The position numbers were made by a program, and so were the translations under genes. This document shows, one piece after another, positions 9,193-32,220 of a stretch of 64,000 nucleotides of DNA. This DNA is from Hydrolagus affinis (Eukaryota). The stretch is from NCBI GenBank assembly GCA_012026655.1, contig JAAILG010001538.1:1-64000 (forward strand), read 5' to 3'. A model generated the notes under the pieces. The model made no database searches. It was not told the origin of the DNA and was given only the letters and a program-made list of their open reading frames with translations. Within the stretch, counting starts at the first letter, position 1, and each line of letters begins with the position of its first letter.

Positions 9193-10275
9193 TACTACAC
9201 TATGCTGTAGTGTACTCTGGGAGTTAACAGAGTTAACTCGGGCTCAATTCCTTTCAATTGGGAGCCTTATTAGTCATTGTTGAAAGTAGGCTTATTCCGT
9301 TCATCCTGCCTGGATTGAAGTGTATGTTCTGCCAGGTGGTGACATGGAATATTATGTAAAAACAAGATTCGACATTTTGCGATCTTATTTGAAGCAGAAT
9401 GTTGAATTAAAAACACCAAAAATGAAAAAGATTCTTAGATAATGTGTGTGTCCCCAAATCAGATGTGGAGAAATCGTACAAATCGTAGACAGTTGCGTGA
9501 ATTGTTTCCCACTCTTTAGAAGACAGAAAATTAATATTGGTGTCACATGTGGCACATTTAATGCCATTTGTTAAATGAGTGTTTCTGCTAACCACTAATT
9601 TGAAACTGATGCCATCCTGATTTCCTTTTGCACTGTTATAAGAATCCTTCCATGGGATATAGCATCATACCACATCATTAAAACATCGCGTTTAAACCCA
9701 CAACCTTGTGAATCCAGAGGCAAGAATTCTACCAACTGAGCCAAGTTGACACTGAATACATATTTTCAAGTACAATATTCACTACTCTTTTATTGGCCTG
9801 ATTTGAAATCACTGATGCAGTGCCCATATATCTAGAACAATGCAAATTATCCCTTCACTGGAATCACTCAGCATTTCCGATCCAACCTGAGATATTAGGA
9901 TTGATCACTTGGCAATTGTTCATATGAAGTAATCTTTTTGTTGAGTGTTCAGATGGGAAACCGTACTGTGTAAATGTAACATAAAGATAGATAGTGTTAG
10001 AGACTGGCCCATCAATGACTCCATGTCCATGGATTCTCAGTGGTTGGTCAACTGGCAATGCACTATAAACAATACTGAAGTCTGGACTCATAGCACTGGG
10101 ATCTGAAGGCAGAGCTATAGATTGGTCACACAGTATAATTGCTGAGCTCCATCCCGGTCTTCACCAAAAAGAAGCACATTTGATTTTCTTTTATTAAAAC
10201 TATAATTTAATTTTCGTACAAACTGTCAAACTGTTTTCTTTCGTCTTCATTCAATGTAATAATCTTTCTCCATAG

Positions 10276-10439
10276 GGTCAACGAATGCCACAGCAGCAAA
10301 GGACTCTGAGATCAATTTAGAAACATTGAGTGACGTCATTCAGATTTCTGCCTCATGTACACATCAGCTACAAGTATTTGAGTTACGAAGAAATGTCCTA
10401 GACCTCCGCCAGCAGCTTCAGCAGTTAAGATATCTACAG
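10276..10439 (+). CDS. KIAA1217: KIAA1217 coding exon C
   Basis: ctttctccatag acceptor, CAG|gtattg donor; 164 nt, phase 1-0; ends FELRRNVLDLRQQLQQLRYLQ (start of coiled coil). Confidence 0.92.
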
Positions 10440-10483
10440 GTATTGTTCATCTTTCAACAAGTTTAATAACCACATAGCACATG

Positions 10484-11005
10484 TGAATGCTGCATTGTCA
10501 GAGGTGCATGCTTTGAATGAGACTTTAAACCAAGATATGGTCTCTCTATAATAGAATCAGTAGTCTCTGATAATACGCAGCAGCTCAGGAAGCATTTATG
10601 GAGAGAGGAACATGAGTTAAAGTTTCGGGTCAATGACCTTTTGTCAGAACGCTGCCGTTGAGTTCTGACGAAACGTTATCGACCTTTAACGTTAACTCAT
10701 TTTCCTCCGTTTCTCCATGGATGCTGCCTGACTTGCTGTGTGTTTGAATAGGGAGACATTGAATCTATGAAAATAGGTGGTCATTGAAATACCATTGCTA
10801 TTTGTAAAGGCCTGGAGTTTTTCCTGGTATCCTGACCAACAATCTGTCAGATAACATTAATCATTCACTTCATGGTTGTTTGTGTGCAAATTGGCTGCTG
10901 CCTACAAAATGCACAGTCACTACACTTAACGGTCTATCTCATGATGCTGTTTGAGATGCCTCCCTATCATGAAAGGCACTATATCTCAAATGCAAGGCTT
11001 ATTAT
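10484..11005 (+). mobile_element. Old Deu-domain SINE interrupted by the inverted-repeat element
   Basis: tgctgcattgtcagaggtgc...tgagactttaaacc, then ttttcctggtatcctgaccaaca, tgtgtgcaaattggctgctg and L2-type tail. Confidence 0.6.
10572..10745. repeat. Long inverted repeat, Penelope-like, with degenerate hammerhead-like cores
   Basis: Arms 10572-10650 and 10662-10745 pair across an 11-nt spacer; each arm reads gttCTGAc(g/a)A-stem-(GA)AAc(g/t)ttaactc-...-tctcca...atgct(g/t)cctga. Confidence 0.75.
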
Positions 11006-30510: not shown

Positions 30511-32220
30511 AAACAACACAATTACACCCGTATTGCGCCTTTCACATCAGGAGGACATCACAAGGTTCTGGACAGTCATTGTTTCAGACCCGAGCTGGGG
30601 TCATGGATGCGCAGGGTGGAGGGAAAGGGGGGATTTGGGGTGACTGATGGGATCATCGAAGAGGAGGGTCTTGAGGCGGGACTTGAAAGAGGCCAGGGAG
30701 GGGGCGAGGCGGAGGGACTGCGGGACGGAGTTCCAGAGGTTGGGGGCAGAATGGCTGAAGGCCAGTCTGCTAATGATGGGACAGATGAGTCAGGGGACGT
30801 GGAGCAGGTGGGAGCCTGCTGAGCGAAGGGGACGGGCAGGCAGGTTGGTAGGGGGTTAGGAGGTCGCAGATGTAGGGTGGGTTGAGGCAGTGGAAGGCTT
30901 TGAATGTGAGGACCAGGATCTTGAATTAGATCCTCTGGATGATGGGGAGCCAATGGAGTCGGGCGAGGATGGGGGGAGATGAAATCACAAAGCTTGGAGA
31001 GGTAGAGGACATGGGCTGCAGAGTTCTGGATTATCTGAAACTTGTGGAAGGAGGAATTGGGAAGGCCGACAAACAGGGCATGTGCGTAGTCAGCATGGAT
31101 GTGATGAAGGTAGGAATGAGGGTTTCAGCGGCCTTGGGGGTAATGTACTGTGAGGTACTGGCGGGCTTGGACAATATTGCGAAGGTGAGGGAAGACAGAG
31201 CGATTCATTGCTTGGATGTGGGGGAGCAAAGACAGTTGAGGATCGAACAAGACACCTAAGTTCCTGACCGACTTGGTGAGGTCGAGGTTGATGCTGCTAG
31301 CTCCTGATGTTGCTAGCTCCTGATGCTGGCGCAAGCAACCTCAACATTCAACTGTAGAAGGTTAGCTCTCATCCACTGTAGAAGGTTAGCTCTCATCCAG
31401 GACTTGACATATGACAGGCAATCTGACAGGACGGTGGTAGTCCTGGAGTTGAGGGTAGAGGCAGAAATATAGAGTTGGGTGTCATCTGTATACATATGGA
31501 AGTTAACCCCATGTCTGCGAATGATGTCACCAATTGGGAGCATGTAGATATTAAAACGTAGGGGCCAAGGACAGAGCCCTGGGGGACACCACAGGTAACA
31601 GTGCAGGGGCTGGAAGAGAAGCTATTGATGGCAACAAAGTGGAGATGATAAGAAAGATAGGAGTCAAACCAGGCGAGGGCAGTTCCATGGAGGTTGAGCT
31701 GGGAGAAGAGGCTGTGTAGGAGGATGGAGTGGTCGACCGTGTCGAAGGCAGAAGAGAGGTCGAGTACAAGGAGGCAGAGAGAGCCCTGATCGCAGATGTT
31801 AAGAATGTCATTAGAGACTTTGGCCAGGGCTGCCTCCGTACAATGGGAAGCACGGAAGCCACATTGCAGGGGTTCGAGGAGAGAATGGCGAGAGAGAAAG
31901 GAGTGAAGCTGGGAAGCAACGACTCGTTTCAGGACCTTAGAGAGGAATGGGAAGTTGGAGATGGGGCGGTAGCTGGAGAGTAGGGAATGGGTCTAGTGAA
32001 GGTTTTTTCAAGATGTGGGTGATGACAGCAGTTTTTAGAGGGATGGGAACAGTGTCGGTGGATAGGGAGAGGTTGGTGATGTCAGTTAGGAAGAGGGCTA
32101 GGAGATGGAGCTGGGAGATGAGGAGAGAGGTGGGAATGGGGTCAAGGGAGCAGGTGGTGGGTTTCATTTTTCGGATGAGTGCAGAGCGGGAAGGGGGAGA
32201 GATAGGGTCAAAGGTGTGTA
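30511..32220 (-). mobile_element. 5'-truncated L2 LINE (~1.7 kb) with degenerate reverse transcriptase
   Basis: Minus ORFs KPTTCSLDPIPTSLL...KTAVITHILKKPSLDP and [24 protein letters not shown] (YADD-type motif); frameshifts; (caa)n tail at 30511. Confidence 0.93.

Follow-up and report, generated by a model that had tools for sequence, protein, structure and literature searches.

A decayed head-to-head pair of Penelope-like element ends in Hydrolagus affinis, probably left by priming on two strands, and its high-copy family

Within the window, a 64,000-nucleotide stretch of Hydrolagus affinis DNA (contig JAAILG010001538.1, positions 1 to 64,000), we found a hairpin at about 10545-10744 that is very probably the decayed head-to-head pair of pLTR ends of an endonuclease-bearing Penelope-like element (PLE) with a Neptune-type linker, likely produced by one insertion event in which both DNA strands were primed. 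The inverted pLTR, the one-sided tail, the duplication and the hammerhead are already in print, and the window copy matters little in itself, being a decayed, most likely now inert and otherwise ordinary member of its family. The family, in turn, is a large natural data set on the origin of the inverted ends and tails of PLEs, an origin that the accessible parts of the literature call undefined (PMC8557442) or unvalidated (PMC11167929). Counts of ends like those reported here were not found in print; supplements and subscription papers, for example the hammerhead alignments of PMC4209133, may hold this family.

The hairpin contains an inverted repeat whose arms (10605-10650 and 10662-10707) are 80% identical and enclose an 11-nt loop (10651-10661), and the predicted fold of 10540-10780 reaches -118.8 kcal/mol (z -13.3), with none of 200 shuffled sequences equally stable. 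Both results agree with the initial annotation, made from the sequence alone, which had described arms of about 80 nt across an 11-nt loop. It had placed the element at 10572-10745; the motifs lie where it put them, but the element is larger, since alignment to the family profile starts the left arm at 10545. This left arm (10545-10650, minus strand) is a pLTR end running from family position +1 to about +106 and has the short, tail-less form of the outer end. Sequence and family junctions identify 10651-10660 as a central filler unique to this copy, the junction (10656-10660) ending in TTG directly before the right arm. The latter (10661-10744, plus strand) starts at family position 0, a hot spot of 5' ends, matches positions 121-200 of the 260-position profile and is broken off at about +79 in the alignment, without its outer 25-55 nt. 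The two window arms differ at 21.5% of 79 aligned nt and diverge by 15-19% from the pooled family consensus, among the more decayed copies. A target-site duplication above chance is absent at this copy, the best score being 7, a value of at least which was reached by 39 of 150 random flank pairs.

Each arm carries a damaged minimal hammerhead. On the plus strand (10661-10698; sequence, family counts and fold), the 5' strand of stem I (10661-10664), CUGACGA (10665-10671), an extra A, stem II (10673-10685), CG-U-U (10690-10693) and the 3' strand of stem I (10694-10698) can be recognized; CTGACGA is intact, TTAA stands at 10686-10689 instead of GAAA, AACGTT lies at 10688-10693, and one stem II pair is broken by a G to C change at 10674. 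On the minus strand (10612-10650; sequence against family counts), GAAAC is intact, the motif reads CTGACAA (10647-10641) through a G8 to A change at a CpG, stem II forms four of five pairs with A-C as its closing pair, and G16.2 has become U, so that the stem III palindrome is lost on this arm too. An intact catalytic core is therefore present on neither arm, the plus arm being without GAAA and the minus arm having both G8 and G16.2 changed, and Rfam hammerhead models found no match in the window stretch. The earlier description of the plus arm (CUGANGA intact, GAAA lost) and of an inactive relic with two broken cores was accurate. For the minus arm it was right about GAAAC and the CpG-type loss of CUGANGA and wrong in taking stem II to be intact. 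Its view that the damage to the two arms is "complementary" does not hold: the arms decayed independently, G8 and G12 being variable CpG sites.

At the level of the family, the hammerhead was assessed in 269 distinct arms that extend across the motif. Its prevailing form has a 4-bp helix I, CUGACGA, one extra A, a 5-bp helix II, GAAA, the palindromic CG and U-U, and the family consensus thus contains CUGANGA, GAAA, NUH and a 4-bp stem I and fits the published minimal hammerhead, palindromic 15.2-16.2 included, in line with the proposal that each arm held one. The core is kept in 101 of the 269 arms and core plus stems in 73; in the subset chosen regardless of motif, the figures are 14 and 7 of 62. 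Stem pairs are formed in 89-97% of arms (77% for the CpG pair), and 264 of 269 have U at N17. At G8 and G12, which lie in CpG dinucleotides, 14.5% and 21.9% of these arms are variant; the other core sites range from 0.4 to 4%, a difference that neutral decay after insertion would give. As for compensatory changes in the stems, one double change was seen, G-C to A-U at 10.1-11.1 in 9 of 269 arms, and stem changes are otherwise mostly one-sided transitions. The Rfam models found no hammerhead in a younger copy (L169), whose sense arm has one core change.

GUU is cleaved more slowly than GUC. It does belong to the cleavable NUH sites (PMC3138052). Once transcribed as part of a host RNA, even an undamaged pair would likely not cut, its sense hammerhead being paired with the antisense arm. 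The minimal hammerheads of metazoan PLEs, as described in PMC4209133, share with the family the 4-bp helix I, CUGANGA, the extra base between 9 and 10.1, G10.1-C11.1, the palindromic 15.2-16.2 and the absence of a helix III loop; the family differs in its 5-bp helix II and in an N17 that is mostly U. Opposite-strand pairs 100-700 bp apart were noted there, whereas the window cores lie 10-15 nt apart and are both broken.

The Penelope-like origin proposed at the outset is supported by the position of the arm, which on its own strand comes after remnants of RT and GIY-YIG. Locus L076 has a decayed GIY-YIG frame between two arms, one downstream of it and the other, inverted, upstream. In 25 of the 30 loci retrieved with the L076 interior (the query locus and one duplicate included), the arm stands behind a GIY-YIG remnant in the same orientation, and in 15 of the 25 retrieved with an RT-bearing stretch it lies downstream of RT remnants, the remainder being one that ends inside the pLTR, three with an arm upstream only and six without an arm. 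All copies seen are broken, and the single ORF is read from fragments, no intact one having been found. These fragments contain DKG, GRPI, GVAMG, RYIDD, a CX4CxxC linker and a CCHH-type GIY-YIG, and their Pfam matches (RVT_1, E 3e-5; GIY-YIG, E 3e-4) are both under the curated cut-offs. RT with DKG followed by a C-terminal GIY-YIG, with the motifs in order, occurs in L377-L385; the CCHH pattern, a CxxC ahead of YIGET with two His further downstream, in L377, L380 and L385; and the linker CQRRRCNTC in L376-L378, L380, L382, L384 and L385. The endonuclease CCHH motif defines EN+ PLEs, and a CX2-5CxxC linker between RT and endonuclease is a trait of the Neptune clade that is common to Nematis too (PMC8557442). 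By these definitions, and as judged from sequence, the parent is an endonuclease-bearing PLE of the 3-kb class, with RT plus GIY-YIG and a Neptune/Nematis linker, and the arm is its pLTR end.

Among the ORF-bearing loci, L076:2629-3705 (G000:C449) is a textbook inverted insertion, a 5'-truncated PLE of approximately 1.1 kb whose pLTRs are inverted, with a single tail and an 11-bp duplication, and L362:185-960 has a pLTR upstream of the ORF start in direct/tandem orientation, interrupted just behind the tail by the insertion of another repeat of approximately 215 bp. A genome search with a generic GIY-YIG profile returned a different PLE-like family and was discarded, as none of 20 loci had the arm. 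Loci L101-L120 (L103 = G000:C59892, L106 = G000:C131211) belong to a second, younger GIY-YIG family without the hammerhead arm; telomere-like CCCTAA repeats abound in its 3' region and form a short run at the end of it. Several of these copies run into GGACTCCGTC-type satellite.

The family is large. A genome search gave 2,164 first-look candidates, and all 40 of those scored matched. A 21-letter mid-arm motif occurs exactly 9,039 times (control, 0), which sets the family at no fewer than 9,039 arms. Sixty 10-kb stretches chosen regardless of content held 19 arm matches grouped as 13 loci (reversed control, 0), a density of about 1 locus per 45 kb in this 600-kb random sample; provided that long contigs are representative, this corresponds to roughly 24,000 loci. 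A weak, very diverged arm match with its own hammerhead-like core (L078:8413-8531) perhaps represents an older related family.

To describe insertions independently of their structure, we took 89 loci that carry the mid-arm motif, selected in the order of the contigs. Short palindromes made up 43 of them, three had inverted arms around a longer interior and 43 had one arm only; most insertions are stubs of 140-270 bp without an ORF. Duplication scores of at least 10 were found in 25 of 49 pairs, compared with 1 of 600 shuffled pairs. In a pooled set of 127 pairs, 62 have a clear duplication, and the other 65 were excluded from the tail count. The duplication measures 14 bp in 28 of the 62 and 13-15 bp in 44 (range, 11-20 bp). 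A 35-nt tail is present on exactly one arm in 61 of these 62 pairs, the last having two short ends; the long end lies at about +136 and the short end mostly at +95 to +105, with five shorter. Solo arms being long in 21 cases and short in 20, an independent choice of ends would put exactly one tail on about half of the pairs. Profile ends alone, taken for 46 unbiased two-arm loci, gave 36 with one tail, 5 with two tails, 2 with none and 3 unclear, and such ends overshoot: L316 changed from two tails to one once the duplication had fixed its ends.

These counts bear directly on whether a non-autonomous palindromic element, be it a MITE or the small palindromic retroposon of the initial annotation, moves as one unit. 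The copies are short, hairpin-shaped and numerous, with nearly half of the structure-blind loci being short palindromes, and the stubs resemble MITEs or microRNA hairpins closely enough that they may be mis-annotated as such. The idea is nevertheless refuted in the sample examined, and we give it practically no chance of being correct. Centre layouts differ in all 43 short palindromes, the two ends are unequal by about 35 nt in all but one of the duplication-bounded pairs, and the arm itself is the pLTR of RT-bearing elements. MITEs make short duplications of fixed length, whereas those of the family vary, which together with the asymmetric ends speaks against a MITE. Of the two outcomes that the initial annotation had named as refuting it, a consensus without the hammerhead elements and a MITE family, neither was observed.

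The two arms of one insertion are more alike than arms taken from different insertions, with a median distance of 9.3% (111 pairs) against 14.6% to others. Subfamily letters at six non-CpG sites agree at 86-96%, where about 50% is expected, and rare letters are common to both arms in 27 of 123 pairs, against 4.6%. Conversion within the hairpin could be an alternative source of such common letters.

Our observations lead us to favor a pathway, read from relatives of the window copy, which has neither a detectable duplication nor a right outer end, in which an RT-endonuclease, likely a dimer, would nick the two strands of the DNA with a spacing of about 14 bp. Each free DNA end would then prime reverse transcription near the 5' end of the element RNA, at a distance of about 100 nt for one and of about 136 nt for the other, the latter giving rise to the tail. 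For both cDNAs, synthesis would as a rule end on the first base of helix I or close to it, likely the RNA start, and repair would join the two cDNA ends with a few filler bases. The dimer, the two primings, the one shared RNA, the RNA start, the repair pathway and the present inactivity are all parts that we infer from the pattern of ends and arms. Against this pathway, about half of the loci (43 of 89) have one arm only.

Alternatively, a single nucleic acid of the same element might have folded back or primed itself to give the mirror half, the endonuclease trimming the other end. The literature proposes self-priming, with an antisense template (PMC3846280), as well as resolution of the tail by the endonuclease (PMC8557442). 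A route of this kind would need no second priming to account for a single tail in each insertion and for arms that are nearly identical; it would also suit the short fold-back-like fillers at several junctions. We consider it improbable, because solo arms end short as often as long (20 to 21). The tail can also lie on either arm of ORF-bearing insertions, the ORF-linked arm being long in L076 and L381 and short in L124, with the inverted partner opposite in each. Finally, in L361 and L375 the inverted pLTRs directly adjoin 5'-truncated ORF sequence that they do not mirror, a structure that plain fold-back of adjacent DNA would not give.

The 5' ends of the arms are concentrated. They fall at -2 to +1, around the first base of helix I, in 28 of the 89 loci, a density of 0.167 per nt compared with 0.010 further downstream and 0.011 further upstream. 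A 5' end directly behind the cleavage site was found in 1 of 89, which argues that cleaved RNA is not the main template, in line with PMC11167929. In ORF-linked pLTRs, the first base of helix I lies within CCCAGT, and an A/T-rich hexamer lies about 29 nt upstream, an arrangement that we take to resemble an initiator and a TATA position.

Additional letters at the junctions may bear on the same point. Among 2,452 exact AG-core matches, the pLTR's C stands in front in 1,866 and another letter in 586; G precedes in 46 of the first 100 non-C matches listed (25 expected, p 5e-6), and TG, TTG and GTTG occur at 180, 101 and 34 of the 586 non-C junctions, TTG and GTTG several times above chance. A copied cap plus untemplated bases, known from other retroelements, would fit these letters. 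The extra-G signal was not visible in the small structure-blind set (2 G among 18), and a related organism's RNA reads, which mapped to both strands of one pLTR copy, began at no common position. Two other explanations were considered. Spliced RNA as the source of the 5' end has some appeal: a pyrimidine tract followed by what resembles a CAG acceptor immediately precedes helix I, which is also where the Drosophila Penelope intron ends (PMC4209133; start site and intron in PMC2377424). This source is not supported: 30 junctions of the GTTG type and 60 others had no conserved exon upstream, and 19 RT loci had no conserved donor to match. Snap-back onto stem I predicted A at -2, where the younger subfamily has T in 7 of 9, and was rejected as the main source of the extra TG.

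We tentatively go one step further, at something short of an even chance, and speculate that the stubs are a fossil record of PLE insertion, in which one dimer copies one RNA twice, from two fixed starts 35 nt apart, onto both strands of a cut staggered by 14 bp, the copies reaching a capped 5' end of the RNA that coincides with the first base of helix I. If true, this would explain the inverted pLTR and one-sided tail of all endonuclease-bearing PLEs and would map a promoter without RNA data.

The closest experimental parallel is the Poseidon protein of the green anole, PAc, which in vitro cuts both strands and extends them, has two internal start sites that bound the tail, needs no ribozyme cleavage and is predicted to be a dimer (PMC11167929). 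On the pathway favored here, the family would resemble it in two internal starts that define the tail, extension of both strands and an uncleaved RNA template; it differs in having the CX4CxxC linker, absent from Poseidon, and in a start region that is GU-rich on the hammerhead strand, compared with AC-rich in Poseidon, as far as the accessible part of that paper describes them (PMC11167929). Our counts provide sharp predictions for this existing in vitro system, namely, one tail per two-arm insertion, a 14-bp stagger and 5' ends at helix I rather than at the cleavage site. Insertions of the EN+ PLE Pen2a in Adineta likewise have a head-to-head pLTR, a tail of about 35 nt at one end, a duplication and RT followed by GIY-YIG (PMC3846280; general scheme in PMC8557442). 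Duplications there are 8-10 bp in the accessible passages, against about 14 bp in the family, most of whose insertions are ORF-less stubs. Animal non-LTR retrozymes, found in vertebrates, are also short pLTR-related sequences with type I hammerheads, but they form head-to-tail tandem arrays, unlike the family loci (10.64898/2026.07.22.740005, accessible part). No head-to-tail arrays occurred among the 89 structure-blind loci or in the 600 kb of random DNA, in a short-read assembly that may collapse arrays.

The window copy lies on the transcribed strand behind a host-gene coding exon (10276-10439, plus strand; AG at 10274-10275, GT donor at 10440-10441) that is defined by an open frame and by stranded RNA reads of a related organism, which cover it and end at 10439, the donor. 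The distance of about 130 nt from the exon given originally is 132 nt to the start chosen at that time; the element itself begins about 105 nt after the donor. The hairpin had been assigned to the KIAA1217 pre-mRNA near a splice donor, and of this the donor stands, while the name KIAA1217-like is a lead only: the top Atlas match (0.91) is for another exon and under the tool's recognition threshold, exon 10276-10439 gave no usable Atlas match, and Pfam was uninformative.

A strong predicted fold at this distance from a donor, in a copy also found in contigs from runs of two other organisms, could suggest that the hairpin was retained because it affects splicing or editing of the host gene. We regard this as very unlikely. 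The arms are more than one-fifth apart and well diverged from the pooled consensus, and at the density of family loci given above a position near a donor is expected hundreds of times in a genome, so that a role at the splice donor is not supported. In organisms A and B, the window copy is about 99% identical, like its flanks, which dates the insertion before their split; in organism B the hairpin, with 1 difference in 184 nt, is kept no better than the adjoining flank (2 in 275), values too close to test selection. No read showed the window copy to be transcribed or edited, the reads over the hairpin coming from other family members and therefore giving no measure of its editing.

Several minor features of the window were also observed. 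High-copy repeats of other kinds, as judged by read depth, flank the hairpin at 10469-10530 and 10810-10960. Inside the exon, at 10309, one contig from run X9 has 4 extra letters, either an allele or a contig error, that are absent from RNA reads of the same organism (depth 2 and 5). Farther along, 31396-31992 (minus strand) is a stop-free stretch that is presumably the remnant of a LINE reverse transcriptase.
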